Shown: one piece after another, positions 2,771 through 36,100 of the stretch | How the letters are laid out: each line of letters begins with the position of its first letter | How positions within the stretch are numbered: position 1 is the stretch's first letter | Assembly: GCA_905331485.1 (NCBI GenBank) | Contig: CAJNYT010000219.1 | Location: 1 to 49,272 of the forward strand | From: Rotaria socialis | Lineage: Eukaryota | Length of the DNA: 49,272 bases | Reading direction: 5' to 3' | Translations under genes and position numbers: made by a program | Notes under the pieces: model-generated | Database searches by the model: none | Seen by the model: the letters and a program-made list of their open reading frames with translations, nothing else | Told to the model about the DNA's origin: nothing

Positions 2771-3560
2771 TTAGATATAATTATTTTCTGTAACATAAAG
2801 TTAGACAAGTAAGTAATCATTCATAAGCAGTAACAAATTGTTTTCATGACACACTTGCCAAAAAAGTCCATAGTGGTCCATAGAGTATGATTAAAAAGAA
2901 TAAGTAAATGAGCATTAATTGAATACATGGATATCGACTATTATCTAGATGTGATACATATCGGATGATGCATAAAGAATTATTCCTGTTGTGTTTTTGG
3001 TATTTTTCCTGTATTATCCTGTTAAGTCAAAATTTCTTTTAATCAAAGATAACACTTGCAATTCTACAAAAAATTAAGTAGCCTATTTAATTAATATATA
3101 TATAGCTTCTTCCATTTTACTGGATTCACATCAATTGTACAGTTAGATCGAATATAAAATGTAAATTTCTTATTTTTCTCTTTTTCTCACGACAGACTAT
3201 ATTTCGTCTACCGATGTTGCCGTTGTGATAGCATGATCTCAATAGATAGCTTCAATCAATTAATTCTAGGGTATGCGTGTCGGTGTAGATGTTATTTAGT
3301 TATTTTTGCACAATCACACCCACACCCTCAAGAAGTTAAGAAAAAGATGTTTAATAATTTCTAAGTTTTGCTCGTCAAAGCTTTGCTCGCATGTTGAATG
3401 TTCTTCTTAACTTTAATGATTGCGTGATGATTGTCTTCAAATGTTTTGTGGTAAATAAGCAAAGCTTTTAAAAAACAATGGAAGGTTTGCGGATAGTTTC
3501 CAGTTGAAAAATGAATACTTCCTGTATTGTTGTAAATAAAATCAATAACAGGGCCTTGAG

Positions 3561-3620
3561 GGTGTGGGGTGTACATATATTTATCACCTATAAATACACA
3601 TCCACACCCACACCCACACC
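3561..3620. repeat. Inverted telomeric-repeat module: (TGTGGG)n - 22-bp filler - (CCCACA)n
   Basis: gggtgtggggtgt ... tccacacccacacccacacc; a smaller cacacccacaccc tract lies at 3315-3327. Confidence 0.85.
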
Positions 3621-4279
3621 AACGATAAAAAAGGATATATAACTGTATAAATTTATCAAACAAGACTCGATGTAATACCATTTGTGTCTGAAACTGTTTT
3701 TACTTTTTTCAGAGAGCTCATATTCTAACCAAGTTTACCATTGTAAATGGTAATTAGCAACAAAGTTTAATAAGGTTATGCCATACATGGTTTTACTCAT
3801 CGATTCAAATAGTTCTCTCTCTCTCTCAAGTTAGATTAGGAAGTTCTTCTGATTAGAATTTGACTTTCTGCGTCGATTTGTACAAGCAGATTTTTCTATA
3901 GCACATAATTAGTTTCAAGTAGTACCGTTTGATCGCTCTTGGGTGTTCCTGTATTAATGGTTTTGAGCGGAACACAAATCAACATTCACATCTACAACCC
4001 ATTCGAAATATTTACAAGCCCTGTTGTTTTTTTTTGTGAAGTTTATAATAGAGGTCAATAACGACGAAAACATCACACACACAATCTTGTTTATTTAAAT
4101 CTTAATAATGTAGATTCTGGTGGGGGTTCTTTTCACGCATACCCTCCCCCCCCCCCACTAAACCCTAAATTTCTGTCTCCCCGTCTCTCTCTCTCTCTCT
4201 GTGTTGTCGATAAATCAATATGTAGTCTTGTTTTTAACAGTAGCATCCAGTCAAAACTAGTGTGATAGTATTTCGGTGA

Positions 4280-5362
4280 TCAAATTGATCTATCTATTAC
4301 TTGGTTGTTTCTTGGGCCTGTACCTATCAGCACCACAGGAATGCCTGTTTCACGTTCCATCATTTCTATATACTGCTTGGATTTTTCTGAAAGCTGATCA
4401 TATTGTGTGATACCAGCATCATCATAGTTGATATACTGTATGAAGTTAACTGCCAATTTGTTAACACCTGTCAGTTTCACTGCACGTTTGATACGATTCA
4501 CATCAATTTCAAATACCCGTCGTAATTTCTTAGTAACAGTTGTTAATTCTTTCGAAGAAAATGTCCCAATAGGGGCACCTGCTCGTTGTTCTACTTCTTC
4601 CCATGTGATTTCTTTTCCACCATCCCCTGAATATGCTTCACCTCCATCAGATTTAGCCATGTCATTAGAAATACGAATTGGATATGTACGAATGACACCA
4701 TAGATATCTCGAATATGTTTCGGAGGAATACCGTTATCTGAAAGTCCTTGCATTGGTGAACATTCTCTGCTGGTACAATGTGGATATTGAAAACCATGAT
4801 TAATACCTAATTCAAAACCTTGTGCTATTTCTAAAATACCTGTTTTTCCTTGTTCCAAATCATCGCAAGCCATTTCAGCTGTGTCTGCCAAAAAATTCGA
4901 CCACTCTCGAATGTCATGCATTAATTTATGATCTGGATGCCGCATTACTTTGAATGCACTAGCTGCACCAACACCTTTAAATGTACTTCCAGAGCGTATA
5001 TTCTCCTTTTCCCAATCACGATGTGTTTGTTGGATAACCGATGCTCTTGGATGAATAAAAAGACGGCCTTTTGCTTTTTCTTTGCCGCCAAGATACTGAT
5101 CAACTTCATTTTCAAGCTGTACCAAATCGATAACAGCGCCAGCACCTATATATAATTTCGTACTATCATTAATTAACGCTTGTGGCAACTGTTGGAAAAC
5201 ATATTTGGTGCCATCTTGTTTTATTACCGTATGACCTGCTTGTACACCATAGCTTTCAATAGCAAAATCATATTTGTGCTTTGTAGCTAAATATCCACCA
5301 ATAAGTCCTTTCCCGCACGATCCAAAGCAGAGATCAAGAATAATATCCAACGATCGTTCCAT
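4280..5362 (-). CDS. Short-form adenylosuccinate synthetase family protein (archaeal PurA / PurZ-type length), 360 aa, single exon
   Basis: Colinear with PurA throughout: 'QAGHTV' matches the NAGHT His motif, 'KGVGAASAF' the GTTGRGIGP region, 'LEIAQGFELGINHGFQYPHCTS' the EGAQG..DHGTYPYVTSS block, and the C-terminal 'EYDKLTEKGKAFI..ERVGVPV.IISTGP' of archaeal PurA aligns with 'QYDQLSEKSKQYIEMMERETGIPVVLIGTGP'. At 360 aa it has the archaeal/PurZ size, not the ~450 aa eukaryotic size. The N-terminal P-loop reads 'FGSCGKGL' where the canonical sequence is 'WGDEGKGK'. A true ATG (cat on the plus strand at 5360-5362) starts the ORF, and it has no intron. Confidence 0.8.
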   Translation of the reverse strand: MERSLDIILDLCFGSCGKGLIGGYLATKHKYDFAIESYGVQAGHTVIKQDGTKYVFQQLPQALINDSTKLYIGAGAVIDLVQLENEVDQYLGGKEKAKGRLFIHPRASVIQQTHRDWEKENIRSGSTFKGVGAASAFKVMRHPDHKLMHDIREWSNFLADTAEMACDDLEQGKTGILEIAQGFELGINHGFQYPHCTSRECSPMQGLSDNGIPPKHIRDIYGVIRTYPIRISNDMAKSDGGEAYSGDGGKEITWEEVEQRAGAPIGTFSSKELTTVTKKLRRVFEIDVNRIKRAVKLTGVNKLAVNFIQYINYDDAGITQYDQLSEKSKQYIEMMERETGIPVVLIGTGPRNNQVIDRSI

Positions 5363-6863
5363 CTGAATGCGTACCTAAAGTTGAACAAATATACATCATA
5401 TCATATAACAACAGCTATAGTGTTATTATGTGTGTACAATTGTTCTAAATAACAACGTATGATACAATACGAATGAATTCAAGTCGTAACCATTTTTCAT
5501 TATACAAAGCATTGATTGAGAGCTCTCATGTTAGTCATTTAAAAGTATCCAATTTAAAAAATAATGGTCTAAGATGATTACAAGGTAACTAAACAGATCT
5601 ATGTTTTTCTATAGGTTTCATAGGGCCTATTAGGATCTGCTAGAATCAAGCAGAGTCTAAAGGCTCGATTAAACTTCATAGAATCAACTAGCGCCCTCAT
5701 TATATGGATTCTATCTGAGGCTTTCGTGATCCCCTCACCCTAGAGATAATATATGTTGTCTTCTCTTCCATCCTCGTTCTGAAGAGTATTACAGACTCTA
5801 GCAAACCCTGTTAGATCCTGGGGGGGGGGACTATTATGACTTATTACATAAATTATATAGAATAGAATTGTTATGGAGTTTATTTGTGCCATTCAGTGAA
5901 AACCAATCTAGAAGCTAATCCCATACGTCACAGCCATCTCATCAGTTTTAATCCAAACAGAAATAAAGCTAAGACGACGAATAATATGAAAACCACAAAG
6001 CTATTTGCATGTAAATATATTACTTTAGAAGCAGTCTCGCGCTTCCCATCTCTACTATGTTTAAAATTATGATATCATCTTTCCGCTGAAAGTTGTTTTG
6101 CAGATTTTTATTGATGCATTTCAAGCAAAAGAAACATTTTTTTTAAAAAGGAATACAAACTGGGTACTATGAAAAGAAAAGTAATCCTACATTTTCTTGT
6201 TATTTCTCGTAAATTCGTTTTGATAACTAGTGTTTTGTCTTCACCTAGCTTGTATCTTTGCTAGACGTTGACATACCTCTTCGTTTGTTCTTTCGGTAGG
6301 AAGCACCTTTATATATATATATAAGTCGATATCTTGGAAATTTTCAGTATATCTACAAAACAAGGGAAAAAATCATGGCTATAATATGGATGGTATTGGC
6401 CAGCCCAGTGCTGGATCAATGTTTATTTATTTTATTTCTTTATGTCACTCTCATCATAATCAATTAGGTATCCGTATCACCAATATCAGTAACTTTATTT
6501 TTATATTTAATTAGACGGGCAATTTTCTTACTCATCGCATTTACCTATTCTTTTTCTTCTTCTCCATTAATAGACAAATATACTATATGTCTTTTACTTT
6601 TACTGACCGAAAACACAACACATGTAACATATGTTATTCGATGTCTATACAGATAATGAGGATAGAAATGCAAAAAAAAGAGAAAGAATTGGGGAATATA
6701 TGCTATCAATTGGGACACTTTCTCTTCTTTTCTCTAGTATATGTGTCTATTAATGGAGAACAAGAAAAATAATAGGTAAATACGATGAGTAAGAAAGTTG
6801 CACCATCATATTAAATAAGAACAAGAAAATTACTGATATAAGCGATACGGACATTTTATCACT

Positions 6864-6958
6864 GGGCGTGGGTGTGGGTGTGTGGATGAAGCAGAGAATA
6901 TGCAACACCCACACCCACACCCACACCCACACCCACACCCACACCCACACCCACACCC
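6864..6958. repeat. Inverted telomeric-repeat module with the longest C-strand tract, about 9 x CCCACA
   Basis: gggcgtgggtgtgggtgtgtgg - 19 bp filler - (cacccaca) for about 54 bp. Confidence 0.9.
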
Positions 6959-7575
6959 TGGTATTGCACGAAGTCTAGCACACTTCGAAACTTCTAAATG
7001 GTTTCACTCGTTAGTATGATTATAAATGCTTCTTTTGAAAGAGGTGAATAATAAACCCTTCTAATCAAAATATGATATTTACAACTCTAACTCTTAATTC
7101 TGTCTCATTTTTTTATGATGTACATTAAATAGATCAAAAAATGAGCATTGAAAAATATTTTAAAGACAAAAAGAAAATATTATTAAAATTCGAATAAAGA
7201 ACACTTGCCGAATTTAACCTTACAAATTCCACTGTTAAGCCACACATTTGCATTATGTTTGAAGAAAACAAATAAAATTTAAAATGAACATCTGGTTTAT
7301 TGAATATGTGAGTGAGAGAAAAGACAGCGCATAACTTATTTGTTAAACTGATAGATTGAAAAAAAAGAAAACCCTTAAAATGATCACTCTATCAATAAGT
7401 ATATGAATGCAGTGACGAATTCGAAAGTACCAAAAATTGGTAACATGCAGTAGAACGCATAGGCGCAGAAATTATTCAAAAATTGGATAGTCACTACATA
7501 ACAATTTTCGGGATTATATGCAAGCAGGTAACACAAAATATAAACATATCGTAAATTAAAAACACTAATAATAAA

Positions 7576-9954
7576 TTAGACTTCTTTAAATAATATTCCG
7601 TAGGGTCGAACATTCTGTGAATTGTTACACGTCCATATATCTCGATTGTGCTTTGCGATCGAACTATTATTAATTCTCACTTGAAACATAACTTGCAATT
7701 GTCGGCCATTGTATGGTGTTGGCCTAGAGTAGTGTCTACTCCCGGAATATGATGGATTAGGCGATAAATATATGCCTCGACCATGAGCAGAACCATTAAC
7801 AATAGGTATCCCATTACTACCTCCAGCAATTAAACCATTACGTAGTATAGCTAAAGCATTGGCAGTTGCAGTACCATGATAAGCTACAGGCCATGCATCT
7901 TTGCCCTCCGCTAGCCATTCAGCATTTTCATATTTTCCAAGTACTTTAATAGCCTTTCTATACCATCCGCATGGCCTTGTATAAGGTTCTGGTCCACGTT
8001 GAAAAGTTCGACCGGCATCATTTCTTGTTGTAAAATCGTAGTCGTAAGTGCTATCAAGAAACTCTTCATCTAGCATAACACGATTTACAAAACGATTAGT
8101 CCGAGCAGTAGCACTTGAAAAATGTGGAATATAAGCTGCAATTGAACTCTGATTGTATTGATAAAATCGAACGTTTTGATCATCTTCCCATCGATTTATA
8201 TCATTATCAATATTCCAATAACTTAATCGAATACTTTCAGGACATGTATATTCAGATGGTTCATTTATTATTAATAGTGGACAATGCTCTTTTTTATCAC
8301 TAAATTGAATATGATCAGCTTTGAAATGAATAACTGATATAATTCGATTATAATTTTCTTCTAATGTTCCTTTGTCCGGTACATAATCTTCGTTTTTCCA
8401 TACAGTATTTGGTAAGGATTTACTTACTACGGACTTTGATTCTGATTCTTGTGCTATTTTATATTCCATTATTCGAGAAGAATAATACATAACAGCATTA
8501 CTTTCATACATATCAGCCTTTTCACACTGAGGACACTTTATTTTTACAGTAGAATTAGACTCTTGTTTAATGGTTGATGTTAGTTTATCATTTAATCTTT
8601 TACAGCACTGGTAACAAAATAAAGCTGAACAATTTGGATTAAGACATAATCTATGTTTTTCAGGTATTAAACGACAATATAAACATTCTAAAGCCGAAGT
8701 TCCTTCCATTTCAAATTTATCAATAATTTTTGATTTACGGTATTCTGATAATCGAACTTTCTTGTAACATGTTGGACAATGATGTTCATGATTTGTATTA
8801 TCACAACTGGATTCAATACAAATGCGACAAAATACTTGTGTACAATATGGGCATTCTAAATTATCATCATTAAGTTGTGATAAACAATTTAGACATTCAG
8901 GTTTATCTATGAAAATTAATGAAGATGTTGACGGTTTATTAATTAAAGTAGCTGAATTAAAATCCGTTTCAACTGCTTGTGCTAAATTAGTTTCATTGGA
9001 TGGCGTTTCTTTTTTTGAGGATATAATTGGATTTGACTGAGTAGGATTTATTTTCTTAATGTTAACTTTATCAATCTGATTATTCAATTCATTGATTTTT
9101 GTTGATATCTTCATCCAATTGCATGATGATTTTAAATTATCGATCAAGAAATCGTTGCTCCCAATAGAAATTGTTGTTGATTTTTTATTTCCAATTGTTT
9201 GTTTTGCTTGCTGGGCGGATTTAATCACATTGATGGTCTCAACTGGAAACATTAAAATAATTGTATTATTATCCAATCGAGCTTCACATTCATAATTTAT
9301 TATAGCAAATTTATCCTTATTGATGTCTGAAACTTTTTGACAGCGATCACTAGGTTGGACTGCATTAATCTGAGATGACCCTATATCTCCGTCGACGATA
9401 GTATCAGGCTGAATATTAAATTTTAATTGAACAATAGAACCAGGATTAATTCCTAAATCCAACATTGGAATATATGCATTTTTATTTAATGAGTAATATT
9501 TTCCATTAGCCATAATTCCTTGCGCATAGCGACCGTCGCAACATCTTACTTTACAAAATTGAGATAACAATAAACGATCATAGGGTAATGCTATTAATAA
9601 TGGATAATCATATATTTGGACTGATTTGAACATGGCCGTTTTTATTAATTTAATATGTGACACGTCAGCATTAGCTGAAATGAATATTTTTTCTAGTAAT
9701 TCAAAGTAATTTTCTACATTCATTGTAATTTTTTCTGATAAATGATTAGTTTGAATCATTTTACCAATATGTTGACATAATTTATTATATCTGAGTGGAT
9801 GAATTAATTGGGACGAAGGAATAATTCCCATTTTAATTTCAGTTATTGGCCAATATCTGAGATCTTGATCTTTACTAACAGCGCTAATAGGTTTATTATA
9901 ATCAGAATTTTCACTTTCTAATTGATTAGTGTTATCGGCAATTAAATGAAACAT
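7576..9954 (-). CDS. Large (792 aa) protein with several Cys-rich zinc-finger clusters (RING/IBR/B-box-like) and a C-terminal PARP-type (H-Y) ADP-ribosyltransferase-fold segment
   Basis: Cys clusters 'CLNCLSQLNDDNLECPYCTQVFCRICIESSCDNTNHEHHCPTC', 'CLYCRLIPEKHRLCLNPNCSALFCYQCC' and 'CPQCEK'. The C-terminal 'WPVAYHGTATANALAILRNGL...GSAHGRGIYLS' matches the PARP H-G-S/T ... IL..GF ... G-x-G-I-Y-F pattern. The ORF stops before the third catalytic position of the ART triad. True ATG start. Confidence 0.6.
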   Translation of the reverse strand: MFHLIADNTNQLESENSDYNKPISAVSKDQDLRYWPITEIKMGIIPSSQLIHPLRYNKLCQHIGKMIQTNHLSEKITMNVENYFELLEKIFISANADVSHIKLIKTAMFKSVQIYDYPLLIALPYDRLLLSQFCKVRCCDGRYAQGIMANGKYYSLNKNAYIPMLDLGINPGSIVQLKFNIQPDTIVDGDIGSSQINAVQPSDRCQKVSDINKDKFAIINYECEARLDNNTIILMFPVETINVIKSAQQAKQTIGNKKSTTISIGSNDFLIDNLKSSCNWMKISTKINELNNQIDKVNIKKINPTQSNPIISSKKETPSNETNLAQAVETDFNSATLINKPSTSSLIFIDKPECLNCLSQLNDDNLECPYCTQVFCRICIESSCDNTNHEHHCPTCYKKVRLSEYRKSKIIDKFEMEGTSALECLYCRLIPEKHRLCLNPNCSALFCYQCCKRLNDKLTSTIKQESNSTVKIKCPQCEKADMYESNAVMYYSSRIMEYKIAQESESKSVVSKSLPNTVWKNEDYVPDKGTLEENYNRIISVIHFKADHIQFSDKKEHCPLLIINEPSEYTCPESIRLSYWNIDNDINRWEDDQNVRFYQYNQSSIAAYIPHFSSATARTNRFVNRVMLDEEFLDSTYDYDFTTRNDAGRTFQRGPEPYTRPCGWYRKAIKVLGKYENAEWLAEGKDAWPVAYHGTATANALAILRNGLIAGGSNGIPIVNGSAHGRGIYLSPNPSYSGSRHYSRPTPYNGRQLQVMFQVRINNSSIAKHNRDIWTCNNSQNVRPYGILFKEV

Positions 9955-10016
9955 AATTAATTGTAAAACTGAAATGGACTCATTTTCTGATAATAGTGTT
10001 TTTGATTCTTTACGTT

Positions 10017-10688
10017 CTAATAATAATAATCGGATTTATGAATAATTAATAATCGAAATGGTGGTAATGCAACACGATTTAATCGAAAAGAAAGTTTTAA
10101 AATTTCTTCGTATAATTCTTTTGCTTCATTTTCTAATGAAATCATTATATTTTCATATACTAATACATAATCAGCAAGATCAACAGGTATTGTGTCAATG
10201 TTATCACTATATAGTATAGTGGATAATATCAGATGAGCTGCACCAATAGTCATAGATTTCGGCAACCAAATCGATTTTAATTGACTATTTTTTGTTGTAG
10301 AAGATAATGAATTTAATGATTTAACTGAATAAATTTCATATTTAACCATACCAGCATCAGTGGTCTGATTTATATTATTAACAGTAATAAAATTACTAAA
10401 AGTTGTATAGAGATCATTGACAAATTCGTGTAAGATTGGATTGCCTTTTAAGTCTAAGACTTTTGTTTGTGCTTGTTGTTGAGATTTCTCAATTGTTTCT
10501 TTAACTATTTTACCGTGATCTTTTGATGAAAATGAATTAAAACAATACTTTTCACTTTCAAATAATGCTTTTAATATATTGACAGTTGTTGGGGTGTCAT
10601 AGATAATATTACTTATTGTGTTGTTTCGGTTATTCGCATTAAGATCATTAGTATCGCTTTGATTGGGAACAGTGGAGGAATTACCCAT
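10017..10688 (-). CDS. 223-aa ORF with an MGNSS N-terminus (N-myristoylation-type motif); unknown function, possibly a separate upstream gene or 5' partner of the 7576..9954 gene
   Basis: Uninterrupted ORF on the same strand immediately upstream of the 792-aa ORF. True ATG start. No recognisable domain. I could not find a usable donor that joins it in frame to the downstream ORF. Confidence 0.35.
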   Translation of the reverse strand: MGNSSTVPNQSDTNDLNANNRNNTISNIIYDTPTTVNILKALFESEKYCFNSFSSKDHGKIVKETIEKSQQQAQTKVLDLKGNPILHEFVNDLYTTFSNFITVNNINQTTDAGMVKYEIYSVKSLNSLSSTTKNSQLKSIWLPKSMTIGAAHLILSTILYSDNIDTIPVDLADYVLVYENIMISLENEAKELYEEILKLSFRLNRVALPPFRLLIIHKSDYYY

Positions 10689-11451
10689 TTTTTATTCGTT
10701 CGTAGGCAGAAAATCTGAAATTGTAGTCAAACTATAAAAGTAATACTAACATCGGATTAACTATAAAAATTTTGTGCTAATGATTCGAACAGAAACTCTT
10801 CTAATCGTCGTCCTTCTTCTATCTTAAGAAATTAAAAGACAAAAAGACCGCTTGATAACAGATAAAGAAGAATATTAAAATAAATAGAAGGATGTTTTCA
10901 TATTATCTAATCATTGCTGCTAGATCCTAATAGATATATTTGGCATTTGAATAGATAATTTTAACTTGTGTTCAATATCATATAACACTGTTGTATGGAA
11001 AAAATTTTTATTGCCAACGAAAAATCGTCAACCCACTTGTTTGAACAAGAATTTAAATATTTCAATTTTTTATTGTAGTGTTTTTTATGGGTCACCCTGT
11101 ATATAAACGAAACGAAAAGAAAAATGTAATATGAATCATTACTAACAACAAGAGACATGAAGAGAAACTCAAGGACACGCATATATAGTGAAATCTATAA
11201 TAAAGAAAGTACCAATAGTCTCCTCTGAACACAGTACAGATCATAACTATCTAATATAGATGAATAAATTATGAATATATCAGTGGCTGGCATGTGTAAG
11301 ATTTGCATAACTTGATGCAACCTAATTCACATATTCTTCAGTTCTATCTGAGTCGATTGAATGTAAAAGCTTTTCAGAATAAAGTAAAAATCATGCCAAC
11401 TTTAAAAAATTATTTCCTATGTAATGTTAACTGGCTGTCTCTTGTTTCAGC

Positions 11452-11508
11452 GGATGTGGATGTGTGTGCGCTATCTTTAACCCAGCCTACGCCCACACCC
11501 ACACACCC
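11452..11508. repeat. Degenerate inverted telomeric-repeat module
   Basis: ggatgtggatgtgtgtgcg ... cgcccacacccacacaccc. Confidence 0.6.
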
Positions 11509-11542
11509 TTATGATACTTGACGTCTCTTATTGATCCTTGTA

Positions 11543-12551
11543 TTAGAGATCTGAGCTACGTAAACTCCAGAGTTTAATTATCCATTTGTTTGCGATTTCA
11601 TCAAAGTGGCACGATGTTACCTTAGCAGGAAAACCATCGAAAATCAAAAGTTCTTGTTCATCCGGATAATTTGAATATGGGGACATATCCAGAGAGCCGG
11701 TATCTTTTTCGAGGTCAATGACAAAAAGAAAGTTGCTGCCAAAGAATTCGGCCACGTTCGGATTAAGAGTAGTTGAGGTAAACGCCGGTAATTGGATTTT
11801 TCTTTCAGAGACAACGCATAGTCGAAATTGTTCAATTTGTTCGTTAGTCATCGTTGCTCCTCGATATACTATCATATTAGTGGGAGTAAAATTCATAGCT
11901 GAATTCAATAGTACAGCAAATGGGCCGTTTGGCCATCCATTCACCTTCTCGTTGCTTCCCCACCTTTTTCGCTTCGATTATAAATCCTTCCGCTGCCTTT
12001 TCTATCCACATCTCAAGTACTGACTGACAAGTGATACCTTTCTCCCAACCAACGCCGTAATGAGAACAAGCTTCTTGAACAAAATCAGGAGTTGTTGGTT
12101 CAATTTGCCAGTTTATGAAACTGTTCGAAGGCAAAACTGAATCTTCCAAGAAACGTTCCGCTCTTACTCGTTTCTCTCGTTCATCCTTGTTACGATCAAC
12201 TATACGTTTCACTGGCCGTTGTTTCTTTTCGTCATTATTAGAGATTTGCATAGAACGTGCAAAAACGATATGATAGTCGTCGAGAAGAGCTTCTGGTAAG
12301 CCTTGTTGGAATGCTTCTTCGATGATTTCAGTTTCTACATCGGTGTATTTTCGCCATTCAGCAGGTTCTGCAAAACAGAAAGGAAGCGCATTAGATTGCC
12401 ACAGCCACTCTATATACTGCTTGGCAATCAATGCAGTAGTAGTCATATACGCAACGACCAAACGGTAGCAGTAAAGATTAGATGTGATAGTAAAAAGAAA
12501 GAAAATGAAAGATATATTTCGTTTCATTATTGACTCTTTTTGTTGTTCCAT
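11543..12551 (-). CDS. Secreted R-S-E clade mono-ADP-ribosyltransferase (arginine-specific type), two exons (12551..~11945 and ~11898..11543), ~320 aa
   Basis: The 224-aa ORF has a signal-peptide-like N-terminus (MKRNISFIFFLFTITSNLYC) and the helical N-domain. The 133-aa ORF carries the catalytic triad: 'VYRG' (R), 'FTSTT' (S-T-T) and 'DEQELLIFDG' ([Q/E]-x-E). The two ORFs overlap in different frames. A 46-nt segment with a GTGAAT donor and a TTCAG acceptor removes the overlap and joins the frames exactly (...KQRE-A-MNFTPTNMIVYRG...). The second ORF's 'M' is GTG, which is consistent with it being internal to an exon. Confidence 0.75.
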
Positions 12552-12797
12552 TCTGTGGCTGGAAGAAAGAAAAAAAAGAAAGGAAATGAAAGGAAATGAA
12601 AGGAAAGAAAAGAAGGAGACAATGTTGGTTAACTTCTGTTATGACACGTCTATAAGCTGTGTCATAAGATGAAAGGTATCACCCAAATATCTTGAGGATG
12701 TGTATAGTAAACAGAGACGTGCACAGGATATAATTTTTTCTCCTGCTCTTGCCTGTCCTGTTACCTACCTTGGTTCTGGTGGGCGGCAGGACAGGAG

Positions 12798-12867
12798 AGG
12801 GTGTGGGTGTGGGGTGTGTAGAGGTGGATGTGTGAGGTGATGCTTCTCTTCACTCACACTCACACCC
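12798..12867. repeat. Inverted telomeric-repeat module
   Basis: gggtgtgggtgtggggtgtgtagaggtggatgtgtgaggtg ... cactcacactcacaccc. Confidence 0.8.
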
Positions 12868-13387
12868 TAAAAATGGAAAGAAAACAAAAACGTATGACGA
12901 AAAAGCAGTAGGTCTCATTAAGTTTTGAGTCTCGATATATCTATAACAAAGGTTGAAGAGGAGCTGGCCATGCAATTTTGGCAGAGAAAAATTTGCTGTA
13001 TCAAACGAAATATTATTCAAAAAGGTTCTGATAGCTTACTACAAAAAACATAACTAAATACTAACTTAACCAATTTTCTATAAAAAAAAGTCGTTTTATT
13101 GAACTGTTGAGTGCGCATTGTTTTTTATTTTGCCATAACTGACGACCTGTAGATCCTTACATGTTGAGGGCGTATTCAATGCGTACTTCATAACATTTTA
13201 GCAGTGACCTAGAGTAAGCTAAATATTTGGATTTGTAGGTTTTTTTATCTTGCTCTTTCATTTCCTATCACAAAGTATAGCGTCTAAAATTTTTGGAAGT
13301 GCGATCCTGTGAAAAAAGATTCGATTTTCTCACGGAGCGTCTCTGAATTCACACTATTAAAATTCAGTATTTAGCGGGTGACTAAGG

Positions 13388-13516: not shown

Positions 13517-14460
13517 CGTCACAGGGCAGGGCAAAAGTTTTTGCCCTGCGCCCTGATAATTTTTCCTATAAACTGATATACAGCATATTTTTCAGTAGAT
13601 TATGCTGACATGGTGATGGATTATAATGTATGTCATTATGCGCCAGTCACTGTGAAATTTGTTACTATGTCTAGTTCGGACAATACCAGTTTACTCATTT
13701 ATTATCATATAATTCAATTATAAAAATAAAATACTGCTTCTAAGAGAAATGCAAAACATGGTAGAATCATTTAATATTGTATAAGAGAACGAGCTAATTT
13801 AAGAATTATGTGTATGATGAGCTTTTTTTCTAAATGATTTCAGACATGAGCTTAGTATTCCAGAGGAAATTTCACTTGAAGATTCAACATGTTCTAATGG
13901 TAACTTTCTTCGCATGTTTTAGTTTTGTATGCTTAGTTCTCTATGTTTTAAATTATTTTCACTTGATATGAACTCGCCCGGTTTTACAAAATTAGAAGAT
14001 CTCTTATTTCATGATAAATCTTACCGCCCCATAATACACAATGAATCTCTTGCTACTGGTACATTTTGAAGAGTCTTTATTTACCCAGCACGATGAGTTG
14101 AGGAGAATACATGTGAAAGATTTACTTGATTTCTCACTTATTCAAATTATGTACATATTCAATCGCCAGATCACGATAAGCGCATTATTTTTGCAGTGAA
14201 CTGATTTTTGTGATAATCTTAATTGCTGTTTGCTACTCATACTTAATTATGTTTTCAGCGCATATCTATATTTTCTCGAATATAGATAAATAAAAATACG
14301 AGTACTTTACTTTTCAGCGGTTACAACATTTTCATTTAGTCTTTACCTTTTTCAATATTTCAGTTCAATTTATAATCACGCCCTGTCCTGCCCTGAGACA
14401 GGGCAGGATATAGCAGGGCGCAGGGCAGGACAGGGCAAAAAGTTGCCCTGTGACGATCTC
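13517..14460. mobile_element. TIR-bounded element (~940 bp) with GC-rich palindromic termini (CGTCACAGGGCA...GCCCTGCGCCCTG), flanked on both sides by telomeric repeats
   Basis: Left 'cgtcacagggcagggcaaaagtttttgccctgcgccctg' (13521-13559); the reverse complement of the right end (14395-14458) is 'cgtcacagggcaactttttgccctgtcctgccctgcgccctg'. No ORF. Confidence 0.6.
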
Positions 14461-17899: not shown

Positions 17900-18720
17900 T
17901 TATTGTGCAGCGGTAGGCTTTTCATTTAAGGAAATGTGCTCCAACCGCATTAGACCATCCATACGTATAGGCTTCTGTTTTTGTTTACTTTCAATACAAA
18001 CGCCATTAGCTACAGTACGAAATAGCTGCGTAATATCTTTATTTGGCTTTGCTATGTGTTTCAATAGATGTTTGGCGAATAATCCATTTCTATCAGTAGT
18101 ATCACCATCAGAGGCAATTTGATTTGGGCTACATGCAAAGACGACGTAGCTGCCATCCGGTACTTCCATTGCATGTAAACTAATACCTTCGAGCTTCGCT
18201 AAAACAACGATACGTGATACATCTTATACGGCACAATTTTGACTAGTTTTTGCTACCAACCGTTTCTTTGCCTTTTGTTTTTTGGATAGTGTACTCGACA
18301 ACAATCTAGTATAAATACCGTCACAAAGGATGGATTTTTTTGTCTTAATTGATGAAGAGTGCGTTCGGCACAAGTACAATAATCCTCAACATCTTCATCA
18401 GATTTAATTAAATCATCATCTACGTGAGCCAAATATGTTCTGCCATTAACGTGATAGCCATGGCCAGAAAAGTAGAACATAACCAAATCGCCGTCAACGA
18501 TTGTCTCAGCAAAAGCGGATATTGTAGAGGCCATTTGTGACTTTGTAAGATCACGTGCCGTTTTTACCTGAAATTTAATATTTCGTAGCACGTTACTAAG
18601 ATCATTAGCATCATTGATACAATGACGAAGTCTATCTTCAGATTGAATATAATTCTGGTTTCCGATAACTAATGCTATTTTACGGCGAGGCCTTGAGGCA
18701 GTAGAATTCAGAGTAGCCAT
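17900..18720 (-). CDS. Caspase-family (peptidase C14-like) protein: p20-like part (18253..18720) plus p10-like part (17900..18169), split by a short intron or frameshift
   Basis: 'KIALVIGNQNY...CINDANDL...FQV', 'FYFSGHGY' (catalytic His-Gly) and 'ILDCCR' (catalytic Cys, D-x-C-R type) sit in the first ORF. 'GSYVVFACSPNQIASDG...NGLFAKHL' in the second ORF is the typical small-subunit motif. The open frame upstream of the second ORF extends to '...RIVVLAKLEGISLHAMEV'. A candidate 62-nt intron (weak GTTGGT donor, TTGTTTTAG acceptor) would join the two parts. Confidence 0.6.
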
Positions 18721-25832: not shown

Positions 25833-27707
25833 ATGACTTCATTAACGAAAAATCTTGAAGGTCTGACTATTGTATGGCTTGATGTTGATCGTATTCATCA
25901 AAACACCGATGATTATTTTGATACGAAAAATCGTCTACGACAATGCAATAATTATATAGAAATATATCATGATCCAAATGAGTGTATTCATGGTATAATA
26001 GCGAATGGATACGTTTTTCTAATCGTTTCTGGTTCAATCTGCGAAACATTTATTCCGCTGATTTTTGAAATCAAACAGATCGTATTTATTTACGTTCTAT
26101 ATTCGGATAATCAATTGACGGACACCTGTGAACTAAAAACTATTTCAAAACTTCATGGAATATTCTCAAGTAAAAACCAACTTATTGAAAAACTGAAACA
26201 AGACGTCAAATCATATTTGAAGAGTTTGCCACTAACATGTATCGTCAATGAAAAGTCAATTCGTGCTTTAAACAAAGAATATTCTACGTTTATGTGGACT
26301 CAATTGCTTATGGACGTTTTAATTCAAATACCTCAAACAGATCGTGCAAAAATGATGATGTTAGAAGATTGCCGATTGCATTATGCTGATAATAAAGCTC
26401 AATTAGATGATATTAACGAGTTTCAAGAAAAATATGAACCAGACTTTGCAGTTTGGTGGTATACACGTGAGAGTTTCGCATATAAACAATTAAACCAAGC
26501 ACTACGTACACAAGATATTGACATTATTTTTAAATATCAATTTTTTATAAGAGATCTTTATGTACTATTGAAAGAATTATATGAAGAATCTATGCCATCC
26601 TTAGAAGAAATATCGATTGTCTACCGTGGCCAACATATCAATTGTGATGAATTGGAAAAAATAAAAAATAATGTGAACGGTCTTATTTCAATGAATTCAT
26701 TTTTATCAACAACTCGAAACAAGAATCGAGCTTTAATATCCGCCGGTGATGGTTCAAATAGGCCCTCGCTTGAATCCATCTTATTTGAAATTACGATTAA
26801 TAAAAATGTTGCTGCTAAAACTAAACCATTCGCTGACATTACAAAGATGAGTCAATTTGGCAAGGCAGAAGAAGAAATACTATTATCGATTGGAAGTATA
26901 TTCAAGATTCAGTCAGTTGAACAGTTAGCTGAAAATGCTCATGTTTGGGACGTTAAGCTAATATTAAATGAATCAGTGGTGATTAATGAAATAGACATGT
27001 TATTCAATTATTTCAAAATGAATTCAACTACAAGTATATCGAATGTCGGTACATTAGGTTTACTATTAGGAGAGATGGGAGAATATGAAAAAGCGGAAAA
27101 ATATTATCAAATGATGCTTGATGAATTATCAACAGATCATTGCGGAGTTCCAATAATATTAAATAATATGGGAGTATTATACAATGATATGGGTAATGAT
27201 GAAAAAGCATTAGAATATTATAAGAAATCATACGAAAGTTATAAAATGCAAAACGTATCAGAAAATGATCTTCTCTTAGCGAATTTATATCATAATATGG
27301 GTTCATTGTATTATGAAAATGAGTATAATAAAACAGCATTGAAATATTTTAAAAAAGCTTTTAAAATTTGTAATAATAATTCTACGCTACCCAGTCTTTT
27401 ATTATCTGCAACATTATATACAGACGTGAGTGGAATATATCAAGATAATGAAGATTCTGTTAATGCATTGGATCAGTTGCAACACACATTTGAAATCCAA
27501 AAAAGAATTCTACCATCAACTCATTTCAGAATCGCTGCAACATACAATAACATAGGAAGTGTTTATCTTTGTAAAGGAGATTATGCAAAAGCATTAGAAA
27601 ACTTTGAAATAGCCTTGAATATTGGATTAAAATCTTTGCCAGCCGATCATGAACATATTCAAACATATCGTGAAAATATAAAACATGCTAAAGAAAGAAT
27701 AAAGTAA
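25833..27707 (+). CDS. ART-TPR protein: R-S-E mono-ADP-ribosyltransferase domain followed by about 4 TPR repeats, with an uncharacterised N-terminal domain; 624 aa
   Basis: 'ISIVYRGQ' (R), 'SFLSTTRN' (S-T-T) and 'GKAEEEILLSIGS' (E-x-E). The C-terminal TPR-like repeats include 'LGEMGEYEKAEKYYQMML', 'MGVLYNDMGNDEKALEYYKKS', 'MGSLYYENEYNKTALKYFKKAF' and 'IGSVYLCKGDYAKALENFEIAL'. True ATG with an in-frame TAG three codons upstream. Confidence 0.85.
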   Translation: MTSLTKNLEGLTIVWLDVDRIHQNTDDYFDTKNRLRQCNNYIEIYHDPNECIHGIIANGYVFLIVSGSICETFIPLIFEIKQIVFIYVLYSDNQLTDTCELKTISKLHGIFSSKNQLIEKLKQDVKSYLKSLPLTCIVNEKSIRALNKEYSTFMWTQLLMDVLIQIPQTDRAKMMMLEDCRLHYADNKAQLDDINEFQEKYEPDFAVWWYTRESFAYKQLNQALRTQDIDIIFKYQFFIRDLYVLLKELYEESMPSLEEISIVYRGQHINCDELEKIKNNVNGLISMNSFLSTTRNKNRALISAGDGSNRPSLESILFEITINKNVAAKTKPFADITKMSQFGKAEEEILLSIGSIFKIQSVEQLAENAHVWDVKLILNESVVINEIDMLFNYFKMNSTTSISNVGTLGLLLGEMGEYEKAEKYYQMMLDELSTDHCGVPIILNNMGVLYNDMGNDEKALEYYKKSYESYKMQNVSENDLLLANLYHNMGSLYYENEYNKTALKYFKKAFKICNNNSTLPSLLLSATLYTDVSGIYQDNEDSVNALDQLQHTFEIQKRILPSTHFRIAATYNNIGSVYLCKGDYAKALENFEIALNIGLKSLPADHEHIQTYRENIKHAKERIK

Positions 27708-28478: not shown

Positions 28479-30061
28479 TTATTCTGCTAGTTCTGCTTCT
28501 ATAAGACGAACACAATGACTAAGTCCATCTTCATTTTTAATTAATTCGCTAATCTTTTTAGCACTGGTTTTATAAATGTTATAATTGTCAATCATAAGAT
28601 CACGAATTGCATTAGTTAAATTCTTCACATTGGTGTGACGTATGGAAATAGATCTTGGTCCTAATCTATTGATAAATATTCGATCACCGTTAAATGGTTG
28701 ATCGGCTCCAAAAGATAATACTAATGTAGGCAATCCATACCAAAGACTTGCATGTGTAGTACCGGCACCACCATGATGAATTGTTGCTGACATATAAATA
28801 AATAACCAAGAATGTGGAATGGCATGTGTCAAATAAAATATATTATCAGCTGTGGATAACGTACTGGCATCTGCGCTTTTAAATCCAACTAATGACATAA
28901 CTGCTTTACAATTATTTCTATCAAGAGCCAATAAAATTTTGCGTATAAATTCCATTTGTTCATCTGCTCCAAACATGGTACCCATCATTGATCCAAGACC
29001 AACATAGATAATCTTCTCGTTTTTCCATTTGGTCAAGAAGTCAAGAATAGGAGTTGGCGGTTGAAAATTCTCATTTTCTTTTTCAAGTATTGGACCGACC
29101 ATATGATCATTTTCGTGCCAATCGGATGGACATGGTATTAAATATTTGGAATAGATCGTTGCAGATACCAATGGCTTACGAAACAGGGATTGAGTCATAC
29201 GTTCATAATTTAATTTCATTGGTGGTAAATCATTAGTGGCACGAAGTTCATTGAGTTTATCATTATAGATGCTTGACATAGCATAGTCGACTATTTTCCA
29301 TTTCAATAAATTGGTCCACTTGAACAAACTACCACTTTTCCCACCTAAACCAGGCGGCGAAAAATGAACTGTTCGTATCACTGGGAATGTGTAGATTCCA
29401 ATTGCTTTAATATTAGGAAATTTCTCAATACAACTTAATCCAGGGAAAATAGATGCAACTGTTAGAACAATTAAATCAGCGTCTTTTACACCAGACAGAA
29501 TTCCATTAAACCATTCTTCAATCGCTGGTTGAAATATACGTTTTACTAATCCCATTTTTAAAATACTTGGATTCCGTCGGAGCTCGATTCCTTCTGGGCT
29601 TGTCGATAAAAAATGTTCTAGGTCACCACCGATTTCAACTACATCGAAACCTGAATAAACAAATAGAAGGTGATATCATGGAAATATTAATGAAAGAACT
29701 CTTCAATATTAGATTTAGATTTATATTGTGCGATGATACAATGATAATATGGGAAAGTATCAAGCGATTGTTGGATTTAAGATTGATAGTACTTACCAGC
29801 AGCTTTTACTATGTCTTGATAACGTCGATGTACACCAAGCCATACGATATGTCCACGTTTTTTAAGTTCTTCGGCAAGTATCATAAAAGGTTTCACATCT
29901 CCTAGAGTGCCAGTCGCCGGAATAAAAATCTTTTTAACTCTAGTATTCTTGCTACTGTCATTAATTTCTTTGGCAATCGAGCTTTCTTCCTGGCTTTCCA
30001 AGTCCATGAGATGTGAATCTTCACTTATATTTCTAAAATTGAAATCAATAATGTGTTTCAT
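28479..30061 (-). CDS. GT1-family UDP-glycosyltransferase (sterol 3-beta-glucosyltransferase / macrolide-GT type), two exons (30061..29797 and 29650..28479), ~480 aa
   Basis: Exon 1 'KKIFIPATGTLGDVKPFMILAEELKKRGHIVWLGVHRRYQDIVKAAG' is the GT-B N-terminal signature. Exon 2 carries 'HHGGAGTT' and 'GLPTLVLSFGADQPFNGDRI' (C-terminal UDP-sugar motif). A GTAAGT donor at 29796 and a TTATTCAG acceptor at 29651 give a 146-nt intron. That joins the frames exactly: ...VKAAG|FDVVEIGGDLEHF..., matching the UGT51-type 'GLEFFPIGGDP'. There is no GRAM/PH N-terminus. The track start at 30079 is TTG; the first ATG is at 30061. Confidence 0.8.
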
Positions 30062-33100: not shown

Positions 33101-36100
33101 ATGAAACCAACTACTACCTCTACTTCATTATTATCACCATTCAATGGCAAAAGCATTGTACTCGAACTTGGCCATGAAGTAGGTTTCAAAGCTAAGCAAG
33201 AATTGATCAATTATTTACGAGAACAGCAAGCACATATTTCGTATATTTTGACAGCCAGTGTATGTTCGCGTGTTATTTCATCAAACATGTGGTTGGAGTT
33301 ACCTTTCTTTTAGACTGATTATGTTCTAACTACGACTAATGTAGATAGCTACAAAATACGTCGTGCCAAACGGCTTGGCTTACCGGTAGTGAATGTTGAA
33401 TATGTACACAAATGCCGTTGTTTGCGACCTGGTCAAACACCTATTGATATTAGCAAATTTATTATCAAGTCAGCAGAAGATCAAGAGAACTTTATAAAAA
33501 CCGGCACTATTTCCATGCAAGGTATTAGAAGTTCTTGTAAAAATCATGTCAGACATCTTTGTTTATTAGAAACTCGAGTAAACGTGACTAAAGCCAATAG
33601 ATTCGATTTGACTAAAATCAAGCTGTGGAATTCGGACGATGTAAATTTGCCTCGTTTCGATGAGCTGGCACATTGTGAGCTTGGCAGATGGGCGATTTTC
33701 AAAGTAGATTTGTATTCATTTCTAGCTGTTATTCTCTTATATTTCTATTGTTCATAGCAGGAAACCAATGATAATTCAAGTGTATTTTTTGTTCTTGAAC
33801 TTCAAGTTATTCCCGAAGAGTACTATGATCGAACAACGAGTGATTATCAACTACGATTTCGATATGAAAAACAGACTATTACCGACGAAGTTTCACAACA
33901 CGATAAAAAAGTATTGGTACAATACGCATTCAGTGATGATCCAAACGAACAACAACAGTTGTTTGCGTCGTACTATTATCGTGTGGCTGCAATGCCACGT
34001 ATAACACGAATTAGTGAGATGTTACCTAACAAATTAGGATCAAAATTATTATTACGTGTATGCAAATGACATTGATAAAAGAATATAATTTAGTTTTTAC
34101 ACATAAAAGAAATTGTTTCTAGTCTTTATTTACACAACGTATCGACACACAAATACTCGATGAAAATGTATGTCAATTGATTGAATCGATTTGGCTAGAA
34201 TCGATTGGTGATCTGAATAAAATTTTGAGCATATCACCTGAATCGATTACTCTCAAAACAGTATGTGTACACTTTCATATTACTGTGTGTTCTAAACATC
34301 CAAATAGATCATTGAGGCCGAAGCTGCACTACTCGAACTCAAAGCGACCAACAATCCTGCTGCTGCACTTCGTTTCTATTCACTTATACCACATCGACCA
34401 GAGTACAATATTGATCTAATCAAGAATCATCGAGCGTTGATCGAAAAAATAGACCTATGTCAGGTATGTCAATCTTGTTTTAAATTGTTTTACTTGATCT
34501 TTTCCCCGTTCAGATGCTTCGAGATATGCATACAGTCAACGAACTGACCAATTGGAATGTTAAAGCACCAATCGAAGCTAAATATCGAGCATTGAAATGT
34601 CATATTGAAACAGTAGCGAGTTCAACATTCGACTTTAAGAATATTGCTAAGCTCATTCAGTCGTCGACTAATAGGCGAGAGAATTTAACATTCTATTTCA
34701 TAATGATTGTTTTTTGTTTATTAGTGGTGAAGAAATTTTAATTCACAACATATTCAGTGTGACTAGACAGACAGATGCACTCAATTTTCGTACAACACTC
34801 TCCCACCAATGGCAGCTGTTTCATGGATCGAAATATGTCAATTTTCTTGGGATTCTTTCACGGTAAAATACTCATTTCGTTCTCTAGACAACATTTATAT
34901 GGCGGTTGTGCGTACGTTTAGTGGTTTAGTCATGCCTAAAATTGTAGTGGACCAATTGGGCGTTGAACGTACTGACGTGGGTTGTCTCGGTTATGGGATA
35001 TATTTTTCAGATTCTGCTTCGACGTCTTTGAAATATACGACAGCAAGTAGAATACGGCCAGGTCGTCGTTTGTTATGCATTTGTCAAGTAGCACTTGGTG
35101 AATCAGCCAATTATTATTTGTTTTCGCCGACTCTCACCAAACCTCCTGATGGTTTTCATAGTACACATGGAGTCAAACAAACAGAAGAAAATCAATCAAA
35201 GTTCACTGTAAGTGAAATGCTAGAAGGATTTATTAATTATGATACTATTTCACAAATCTACTTTGCGTTCTATCGAAATAGGATAATGAATATGCCATCT
35301 ATCAAGTTGAACAACAACGTTTACTTTATGTTGTGGAAGTTTCATGGTCGCCGATTGATGCTCTCAGTATCACTTTAGAACGACTACCTATTGTTCACCA
35401 TCAAGAACATGCATTGAAATTAAGTGAGCACGGTAATGATAAGCTATGATTTCTTGTTGGAATAAACAATTGACTAAATTTTTCTCAAAATATTCTAGCT
35501 GAAGTTCCATTAACGATGGAGGATGAAATCATTGAAGTAGCCGAACAAGACTATGGTTTGATATGTTCATCATCGAGAGACCTTGTACCACTTAAATCAT
35601 TTCATATTCGTGCTCAAATTGTTGATGTTACAGTTGAAGTAATTATATCTACGTTTCGATTGAAGTAAAATACTAATTCCTCATGTTTCTATCTAATGAA
35701 AAGGTTGTTCTCTATCAAGTCTATCATAATACGAGTTCGATACCTATCGAAGCTAAGTATGTGTTTCCTCTTGATGAAAATTCAACTGTATGCGGTTTCG
35801 AAGCACATATTAACAATAAAGTTATCAAAGGTGTCGTTAAAGAGAAAGAACAAGCCAAACGCGAGTATAGAGAAGCAATTGAAAAGGGTCATGGCGCCTA
35901 TTTAATGCATCAAGAAGAAGCTCAAGTGTTCAGCGTTGCGGTTGGTAATTTGCCAGCGCATACTGAAGTTATCATCAAAATAATTTATGTTGCCGAATTA
36001 GAAATCGAAAATGATGACATTATTTTTCGCCTTCCAGCCAAAATGACTTCATGGCAATCGAAAAAAGCTGTCGAAACCAAAGATCAATCGATTTTACGAT

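Follow-up and report, generated by a model that had tools for sequence, protein, structure and literature searches.

A rotifer gene combining RING-type zinc modules, a probable ubiquitin-like region and a compact PARP-type ADP-ribosyltransferase domain, with its frame broken once in an assembly of Rotaria socialis

INTRODUCTION

Crosstalk between ADP-ribosylation and ubiquitylation is under active study (DTX3L/PARP9, RNF146, Legionella SidE), and most of the known cases involve either separate proteins or effectors of bacteria. Here, we analyze a gene of Rotaria socialis that occupies positions 7576 to 10688 on the minus strand of a 49,272-nt stretch of DNA (positions 1 to 49,272 of contig CAJNYT010000219.1, assembly GCA_905331485.1; hereafter, “the window”). 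Its predicted product carries zinc modules of the RING type, a probable ubiquitin-like (UBL) region, and, at the C-terminus, an ADP-ribosyltransferase (ART) domain of the PARP type. Our best explanation, which we consider fairly probable, is that this is a rotifer RING-UBL-ART gene whose product, with a His-Tyr-Asp (H-Y-D) ART, would act as a mono-ADP-ribosyltransferase working with the ubiquitin system, and whose reading frame is broken once in this assembly.

Among the closest described systems, the DTX3L-PARP9 pair and the DTX RING-DTC ligases join a RING ligase with ADP-ribose chemistry, as the rotifer protein does. However, DTX3L-PARP9 consists of two proteins and carries DTC and macrodomains, whereas neither domain was detected in the rotifer protein, in which the ART His is kept. 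Domains of the ubiquitin system and of PARPs are fused in the U-box-Macro-PARP of Dictyostelium (DDB0232928) and in the fungal PARP-UBCc proteins (PMC2964712; bioRxiv 10.64898/2026.07.25.740670). These fusions belong to PARP clades 3 and 6 and carry a U-box or a ubiquitin-conjugating (E2) domain, whereas the UBL, the double RING, and the domain ending in His-Phe-Ser/Thr of the rotifer protein are absent from them, a distinction that we draw from their descriptions. A survey of fungi reports only PARP1-type and PARP6-type enzymes and leaves unmentioned the ubiquitin-ART proteins of Glomeromycota (bioRxiv 10.64898/2026.07.25.740670), which belong to the wider family described below.

RESULTS

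The DNA of the window is AT-rich (GC ~0.33), and the gene appears in it as two minus-strand open reading frames (ORFs), one of 223 aa with an MGNSS start (10688 to 10017) and one of 792 aa (9954 to 7576). By sequence comparison, these two ORFs are one gene broken by a 1-nt deletion at 10032, because homologues read straight through the junction and because a single 1-nt gap separates the window from a close relative. In tblastn searches with the homologues P0001 and P0003, aa 1 to 219 fell in frame −2 (10688 to 10032) and aa 220 onward in frame −1 (10032 to 7579), with no further gap and no intron across the gene. The homologues begin with the sequence of the 223-aa ORF, run collinearly through the junction (...LLVIHKS-RLLLLERKESK...LIMFHLI...), and continue into the 792-aa ORF. 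The relative is a contig of R. magnacalcarata (CAJNRE010002589.1; hereafter, L001) that is 97.9% identical to the window over 3827 nt; the sole gap in this alignment is the 1 nt at 10032, the frameshift site (10032 to 10033) reading CC in the window (AAATCCGATTA) versus CCC in L001 (AAATCCCGATTA).

Putting the missing base back yields a 1037-residue protein; its coding sequence has no intron, comprises 1037 codons plus stop, and lies in two frames in the window. We use this corrected numbering throughout, and all features of the gene given below are on the minus strand. Full-length homologues measure 946 to 1033 aa. On the single-gene reading, the 223-aa ORF thus forms the N-terminal part of the protein, and the Met at which the 792-aa ORF starts lies inside it. 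An earlier note, made on this DNA from the sequence alone, had suggested that the 223-aa ORF could encode a membrane-anchoring partner, a possibility that falls away since this ORF corresponds to residues 1 to 219 of the same protein, set apart by the 1-nt deletion. We also considered a short intron between the ORFs, which is ruled out by the collinearity of the homologues through the junction, and a ciliate genetic code, which is ruled out by the length of the ORFs under the standard code and by best matches from Rotaria. The same split exists in the public record: positions 4576 to 12954 of the window are 100% identical, at the same coordinates, to CAJOBR010003178.1 (assembly GCA_905332275.1), whose annotation likewise calls separate 223-aa and 792-aa products, and these two called proteins would be the halves of one frameshifted gene. 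That contig is listed at 13,702 nt with coordinates as in the window, which has no visible gap at 13,702.

The best protein matches came from bdelloids (R. magnacalcarata, 95% identity; Rotaria sp. Silwood1, 71%; Adineta ricciae, 42%), and by sequence the gene is a member of a bdelloid-rotifer family of proteins of roughly 900 to 1030 aa. Its parts are arranged in the order N-terminal region, probable UBL, low-complexity linker, C4C4 RING, second RING-like module, small β domain, and ART.

The ART domain (aa 876 to 1037, 162 aa; 7579 to 8064) is compact and of the PARP type. The stretch AYHGT...GRGIYLS, in which the earlier note had recognized a PARP-type fold, indeed matched the Pfam family PF00644 (PARP) at 30.1 bits, above the curated cutoff of 26.7 (residues 690 to 763 of the 792-aa ORF), this match spanning only positions 51 to 120 of the 199 in the profile; the C-terminal fragment scored 31.3 bits. 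A profile made from a 40-sequence alignment of the domain retrieved from the PDB PARP16 (expect value, E, 1.8e-5), PARP10 (6.6e-5), PARP12, and exotoxin A (3.9e-4), and hhalign aligned the domain with PARP10 and PARP15, whose sequences were verified against the PDB, at a probability of 95.5%. The AlphaFold2 model built from the same 40-sequence alignment (predicted local distance difference test, pLDDT, 92.3; predicted template-modeling score, pTM, 0.88) contains both sheets, including the C-terminal β-hairpin, and the alignments that Foldseek returned for the 162-residue query ran over 155 to 171 columns and covered the whole domain. The secondary structure proceeds from the His strand through a helix, the Tyr strand, a short helix, and a long strand to a terminal hairpin made of a short and a ten-residue strand, an order collinear with what we take to be the layout of the PARP10 catalytic core. 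A tankyrase-2 chain that presumably lacks the last two strands aligned over 25 fewer residues than full tankyrase-1, a difference that fits both terminal strands of the ART model being matched and that indirectly supports the placement of the third catalytic residue proposed below.

The fold and the His and Tyr of the NAD+-binding triad are common to the rotifer domain and the mono-ART PARPs (PARP16, PARP10, PARP14/15, and PARP12; ARTD, PF00644). The rotifer domain differs from them in measuring just 162 residues, in having no helical regulatory domain, and in its third catalytic residue, which is probably Asp; it further has an N-terminal β-hairpin extension with invariant residues specific to the family (D10, R23-G24, Y28, P31, and W50, plus Q128-x-R130 and R153-x-Y155). 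In place of the long acceptor loop, ~12 residues connect the long strand to the strand of the third residue, compared with ~37 in PARP10 and a still longer loop in PARP1.

Because of the position at which the ORF ends, the earlier note had read the ART as truncated before its third catalytic residue and had asked whether a 3' exon might supply it. Upon searching the family profile against 1.84 billion cluster representatives, we obtained 1856 proteins at E < 0.001, 924 of them at E < 1e-10. Among the 150 matches listed, nearly all of those from outside the rotifer family cover only profile positions ~830 to 999, i.e., the last ~165 residues, and in many of these the match stops only a few residues short of the C-terminus of the protein; the rotifer homologues, too, terminate at nearly the same point, give or take a few residues. 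Judged from these sequences and from the model, the ART domain is complete, and no 3' exon is missing, because close and distant relatives share this end point. The terminal hairpin is predicted to be present, and an Asp most probably takes the position of PARP1 Glu988.

Two residues of the catalytic triad are readily placed. The His of AYHGT (H938; 7876 to 7878) is retained in all 105 relatives and the Tyr of GIYLS (Y974; 7768 to 7770) in 101 of them, and they align with H887 and Y919 of PARP10 and with H862 and Y896 in what we take to be the PARP1 sequence. In PARPs, the third residue of the triad is Glu in polymerases and Ile, Leu, Tyr, or Thr in mono-ARTs. Here, it is most probably the Asp of RDIWTC (D1017; 7639 to 7641), which would give an H-Y-D triad. 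We make this assignment because of strand topology, a spacing of +13, and an enrichment of Glu and Asp. In the model, D1017 lies two residues upstream of the strand W-T-C, the first of the terminal hairpin. Its distance to the aromatic residue of the last strand, 13 residues, is identical in the verified sequence of PARP10 and presumably also in PARP1 (from Glu988) and PARP16. The alignment column of D1017 is acidic in 58 of the 105 relatives (E in 33, D in 25), and the residue is followed by hydrophobic residues comparable with the I-F-V-I-F of PARP10 and with what we take to be E-Y-I-V-Y in PARP1. A profile of the last 47 residues, aimed at the third residue, returned only chance matches from the PDB.

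As the earlier note's Cys clusters in the middle of the protein had indicated, 16 Cys are invariant there in a 12-sequence family alignment, and they form two 8-Cys modules. The first (aa 599 to 641; 8767 to 8895) is a C4C4 RING finger whose eight Cys, invariant in the 12 sequences, follow a spacing of the cross-brace type, C-x2-C-x10-C-x2-C-x4-C-x2-C-x13-C-x2-C; by eye, a Pro is kept after the seventh Cys and an Asn is invariant two residues after the first. Searched against the PDB, the family profile found the RINGs of TRIM37 (E 3.8e-4) and TRIM32 (E 3e-3), followed by those of RNF4 and BRCA1. The TRIM37 RING, the closest of these, has the CPxC-x4-C-x2-C spacing in common with the rotifer module; unlike in TRIM37-type proteins, the rotifer RING is not followed by a B-box, a coiled coil, or a MATH domain, and the invariant Asn replaces the usual hydrophobic residue. 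The expectation of a ubiquitin-ligase-type zinc finger and an ART in one polypeptide is thereby supported.

The second module (aa 669 to 722; 8524 to 8685) is RING-like, with the spacing C-x2-C-x9-C-x4-C-x4-C-x2-C-x23-C-x2-C. Seven of its Cys are invariant and the eighth is nearly so when two distant metagenomic relatives from outside the rotifers are included, both of which keep the Cys ligands of this module upstream of the small β domain and the ART; one of the two, P0031, also has a RING-like first module. RINGs were again the best matches in the PDB (RNF4, E 0.0026; TRIM37, E 0.15). The Pfam scans gave no signal for IBR, B-box, DTC, Macro, or a DNA-binding zinc finger, DTC and Macro being absent among the matches at E up to 1 to 10. 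Of the “RING/IBR-like” description in the earlier note, the RING part accordingly stands and the IBR part does not; a DTC domain, as its analogy to DTX3L would call for, was not found in these scans, and no family of DNA-binding zinc fingers was matched by the Cys clusters.

We weighed whether the two modules could instead make up a ligase of the RING-between-RING (RBR) type (RING1-IBR/Rcat) with a catalytic Cys. The spacing at the start of the second module, C-x2-C-x9-C-x4-C-x4-C, resembles the first part of parkin RING2, as we take that sequence to be, and its CxDPxC is reminiscent of the IBR motif CPxPxC. Yet an RBR requires three modules and two are present, no IBR was matched in Pfam, ARIH1 scored only E 2.5 and 8.3 with plain RINGs scoring better, and two zinc sites use up all eight Cys, so that no free Cys is left. 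We therefore hold an RBR ligase to be highly improbable and retain the reading of a RING followed by a second, RING-like module.

Further upstream, aa 355 to 427 (9409 to 9627) form a divergent region that is probably ubiquitin-like (β-grasp). A family sub-alignment of this region was compared by hhalign with 132 ubiquitin domains and gave a probability of 71% and an E of 3.7e-5, the alignment covering ubiquitin's C-terminal half, whereas six other regions of the protein, used as controls, all remained below 1%. The search with PF00240 gave no match at this region, and the AlphaFold model is of low confidence there; the full-length model (18-sequence alignment), with a mean pLDDT of 45, is unreliable except in the ART domain. 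The N-terminal region (aa 1 to 219; 10032 to 10688) starts with MGNSST and aligns with the N-termini of P0001 to P0004, P0007, P0008, P0010, and P0011. It had no Pfam match, and the N-terminal 350 residues had no match beyond the rotifer family. The MGNSST start fits a loose N-myristoylation pattern, but MG begins no more than roughly half of the N-termini in the family, namely the Rotaria-like ones.

To see in what company the ART module occurs elsewhere, we examined the domains of its 120 best relatives. Mostly these are proteins of 160 to 320 aa with a ubiquitin domain (PF00240) directly upstream of the ART; ubiquitin-ART proteins of this kind were found in Glomeromycota, Rotaria, Dictyostelium, the green alga Bryopsis, a sponge, and fishes. 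Their ART is 29 to 43% identical to the rotifer ART over 78 to 100% of its length (E 1e-47 to 1e-61). The 120 relatives are unnamed or called “ubiquitin-like domain-containing”; the name NEURL4 occurs among none of them, names only being compared, and a viral scan with the ART module found no relative. No description of the ubiquitin-ART proteins was found in the PARP family surveys that we read, and the ubiquitin-linked ART family is apparently undescribed.

The junction between the ubiquitin domain and the ART may be a cleavage site. Internal UBLs usually have no Gly-Gly, and cleavable fusions of the UBA52/RPS27A type keep it. Here, the Gly-Gly of the ubiquitin domain (positions 75 and 76) is retained at 74 of 116 junctions, and the YDYDF motif near the start of the ART follows the end of ubiquitin by 10 to 19 residues at 101 of them, 80 of these falling within 15 to 19 residues. 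In three relatives (P0038, P0062, and P0048), a pretoxin-HINT domain (PF07591), which releases bacterial polymorphic toxins by autoproteolysis, lies ahead of the ART; it directly follows the ubiquitin Gly-Gly in two of them, the third being a fragment that lacks its N-terminus. Given this retention of Gly-Gly and the presence of pretoxin-HINT at the junction, the sequences point to an ART module that in many cases is synthesized within a precursor and then released.

Some metagenomic relatives show further peculiarities. In P0038, P0047, P0062, and P0048, a HINT/intein-like domain (in P0047 by motif only) lies between ubiquitin and ART, starting with Cys after the ubiquitin Gly-Gly and ending with His-Asn, followed by Ser, Thr, Gln, or Asn. 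P0032, a protein of 1426 aa, contains three protein-kinase domains and two UBL-ART copies, in both of which the triad Tyr is replaced (GIITTP).

In the rotifer protein, a small domain predicted to be all-β (aa 793 to 860; 8110 to 8313), which we refer to as the “pre-ART domain,” precedes the ART. All 17 sequences compared, some as little as 22% identical, have an invariant P, E-P, W, and H-F in this domain, the last followed by S or T. This H-F-[S/T] motif, kept in all members with a pre-ART domain, including P0019 and P0041, ends the domain ~25 residues before the ART and reads His-Phe-Ser in the window (8116 to 8124). The domain had no PDB match at E up to 10, no Pfam match, ZU5 included, for the 17 members, and no hit in a word search of 5.8 billion proteins. 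We tried homology to ZU5 and rejected it: hhalign gave a probability of 1.4%, and the local match fell on the PHC motif in the middle of ZU5 and not on the FIIND cleavage position, which corresponds to Leu677 of UNC5b (PMC3210808).

A motif of this kind does raise the possibility of self-cleavage. Autocleavage is established at HFS and SFS motifs in which the Phe is buried and the Ser serves as the nucleophile (PMC3210808), and in PIDD and Nup98 (HFS) as in the FIIND of NLRP1 and CARD8, an H/S-F-S motif likewise ends a domain, just as H-F-[S/T] ends the rotifer β domain before the effector. The protein might then be a pro-effector in which the motif would serve as a PIDD/Nup98-like site of autoproteolysis in cis that frees the ART, with the RING/UBL half controlling stability or release. 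In favor of such a scheme are the invariance of the motif in 17 divergent sequences at a fixed ~25 residues ahead of the ART and the other cleavage devices that relatives carry at the same junction. The likeness to ZU5 and Nup98 autoproteolytic domains, however, exists only at the level of the motif, with neither fold nor profile similarity demonstrable and no homology detected to any family in the PDB or Pfam, ZU5 and Nup98 among them; the faint ZU5 match misses the cleavage position, and the full-length AlphaFold model gave no usable structure of the pre-ART domain. We consider the pro-effector scheme quite unlikely.

Instead, we favor the reading in which the intact protein is a predicted mono-ADP-ribosyltransferase coupled to ubiquitin signaling: The RING would engage E2~ubiquitin, and the ART would use NAD+ to modify a substrate, the protein itself, or ubiquitin. 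We draw the link to ubiquitin because in the wider family, the ART module is usually C-terminal to a ubiquitin domain with a retained Gly-Gly.

Several observations weigh against this reading. The RING scored below the Pfam thresholds, at 14 to 15 bits (zf-RING_2, 14.7 versus a cutoff of 27.3). Its invariant Asn sits two residues after the first Cys, at an E2-contact position usually taken by Ile, Val, or Leu. The third triad residue was assigned from topology and spacing, and a shift of one residue, to Ile1018, is possible; hhalign alignments with PARP1 (in the sequence we take it to have) and with PARP10/15 stopped at the long strand, and their greedy extension had zero confidence. Within the rotifer subfamily, moreover, the third position is D, N, F, or P, and in P0006, the triad Tyr is replaced by Cys. 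Last, the window copy itself may be non-functional, in view of its frameshift, a deletion in the neighboring gene, and a ratio of non-synonymous to synonymous substitution rates (dN/dS) of 0.61 relative to L001, obtained from only 48 substitutions (14 synonymous and 34 non-synonymous).

The variable third position is found as well among the mono-ART PARPs, but it would also be expected if some members were inactive. Together with the Cys of P0006 and with the inactive PARP folds that appeared among the structural matches to the ART model (PARP13, TASOR, and RCD1), it would suit a pseudo-enzyme limited to binding NAD+ or ADP-ribose, as the earlier note had suggested, which would act as a reader and steer the RING ligase to ADP-ribosylated targets. 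Such a role appears unlikely to us when set against the retention of the His in all and of the Tyr in nearly all of the 105 relatives and against a domain that is not truncated. The human PARPs that are inactive, PARP9 and PARP13, have lost the His, whereas the mono-ARTs PARP10 (H-Y-I) and PARP16 (H-Y-Y) are active with a third residue that is not acidic. An active transferase, with a probable H-Y-D triad, remains our preferred reading of the intact protein.

Whether the copy in the window still makes such a protein is a separate matter. The neighboring gene (11543 to 12551, minus strand) encodes a WWE domain and an ADP-ribosyltransferase of the R-S-E type (PF02825, PF03496, and PF01129), and relative to its intact 354-aa counterpart in L001, 158 nt (codons 175 to 227) are absent from it and its frame is shifted. 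With this neighbor, the haplotype carries two disrupted genes side by side. The window copy could be a recently disabled pseudogene or null allele, with a real frameshift and at most an N-terminally truncated 792-aa product, in a family that is functional elsewhere. We regard this proposition as evenly balanced. A 1-nt loss within a run of just two to three C is an improbable assembly error, the neighbor is out of frame, the dN/dS is 0.61, and the public annotation splits the gene as well. The short run, the state of the neighbor, and the dN/dS lean toward a real and recent null allele or a copy in decay. Conversely, both halves are otherwise open over 219 and 818 codons, the DNA matches L001 at 97.9% identity across the 3.8 kb they have in common and the protein is 95 to 97% identical where P0001 overlaps, the dN/dS comes from few changes, and the haplotype is represented by a single assembly, so that an assembly error is possible.

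Other genes of the window include further candidates of related kinds. At 34809 to 38054 (plus strand), we observed a canonical PARP4/vault-PARP-like gene of several exons, with a PF00644 match of 45 bits followed by VIT and vWA domains. A 624-aa ORF at 25833 to 27707 (plus strand) has C-terminal TPR repeats by Pfam and, by eye only, ART-like motifs of the R-S-E type in its middle part (YRG...STT...EEEILL); no Pfam ART match is listed for it at E up to 0.001. On the minus strand lie two long ORFs without an internal stop, one adenylosuccinate synthetase-like (4280 to 5362; PF00709, 144 bits) and one EryCIII/UDP-glycosyltransferase-like (28479 to 29555), as well as a caspase-domain ORF (18253 to 18720; Peptidase_C14, 100 bits). 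Dinucleotide microsatellites, visible as WVWVWV, PTPTPT, and CGCGCG in the ORF translations, flank the gene cluster at 6750 to 6956, 11303 to 11521, and 3361 to 3681.

DISCUSSION

The nearest relatives of the rotifer ART are the ubiquitin-ART proteins, which share the same module, likewise at the C-terminus and likewise tied to ubiquitin-fold domains. They differ from the rotifer protein in being only 160 to 320 aa long with one ubiquitin domain and in lacking the RING, the second zinc module, and the domain ending in H-F-[S/T], all of which the rotifer protein has.

More broadly, the ART modules might represent an as yet unrecognized eukaryotic class of “packaged” ADP-ribosylating effectors, made as precursors that would be cut at a fixed junction ~15 to 25 residues before the domain by a device that depends on the lineage: a deubiquitinase acting at Gly-Gly in most, pretoxin-HINT in some, and autoproteolysis at H-F-[S/T] in the rotifer protein, where the RING/UBL part would control degradation or release. 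We consider this generalization quite unlikely. If it were true, the RING/UBL half would be comparable to the “functional degradation” of NLRP1 and CARD8, and ubiquitin itself would be a possible target.

Overall, the gene joins a RING, a probable ubiquitin-like fold, and a minimal PARP-type ART in a single eukaryotic polypeptide, and it provides an entry point to a large set of relatives, the 924 cluster representatives, in which the same ART is mostly fused to ubiquitin. If the ART is active, it would be a very small and tractable PARP-like domain, and the protein would be a natural test of an ART activity that is coupled to, or released by, modules of the ubiquitin system. The family would then hold candidates for new ubiquitin-directed ADP-ribosylation.

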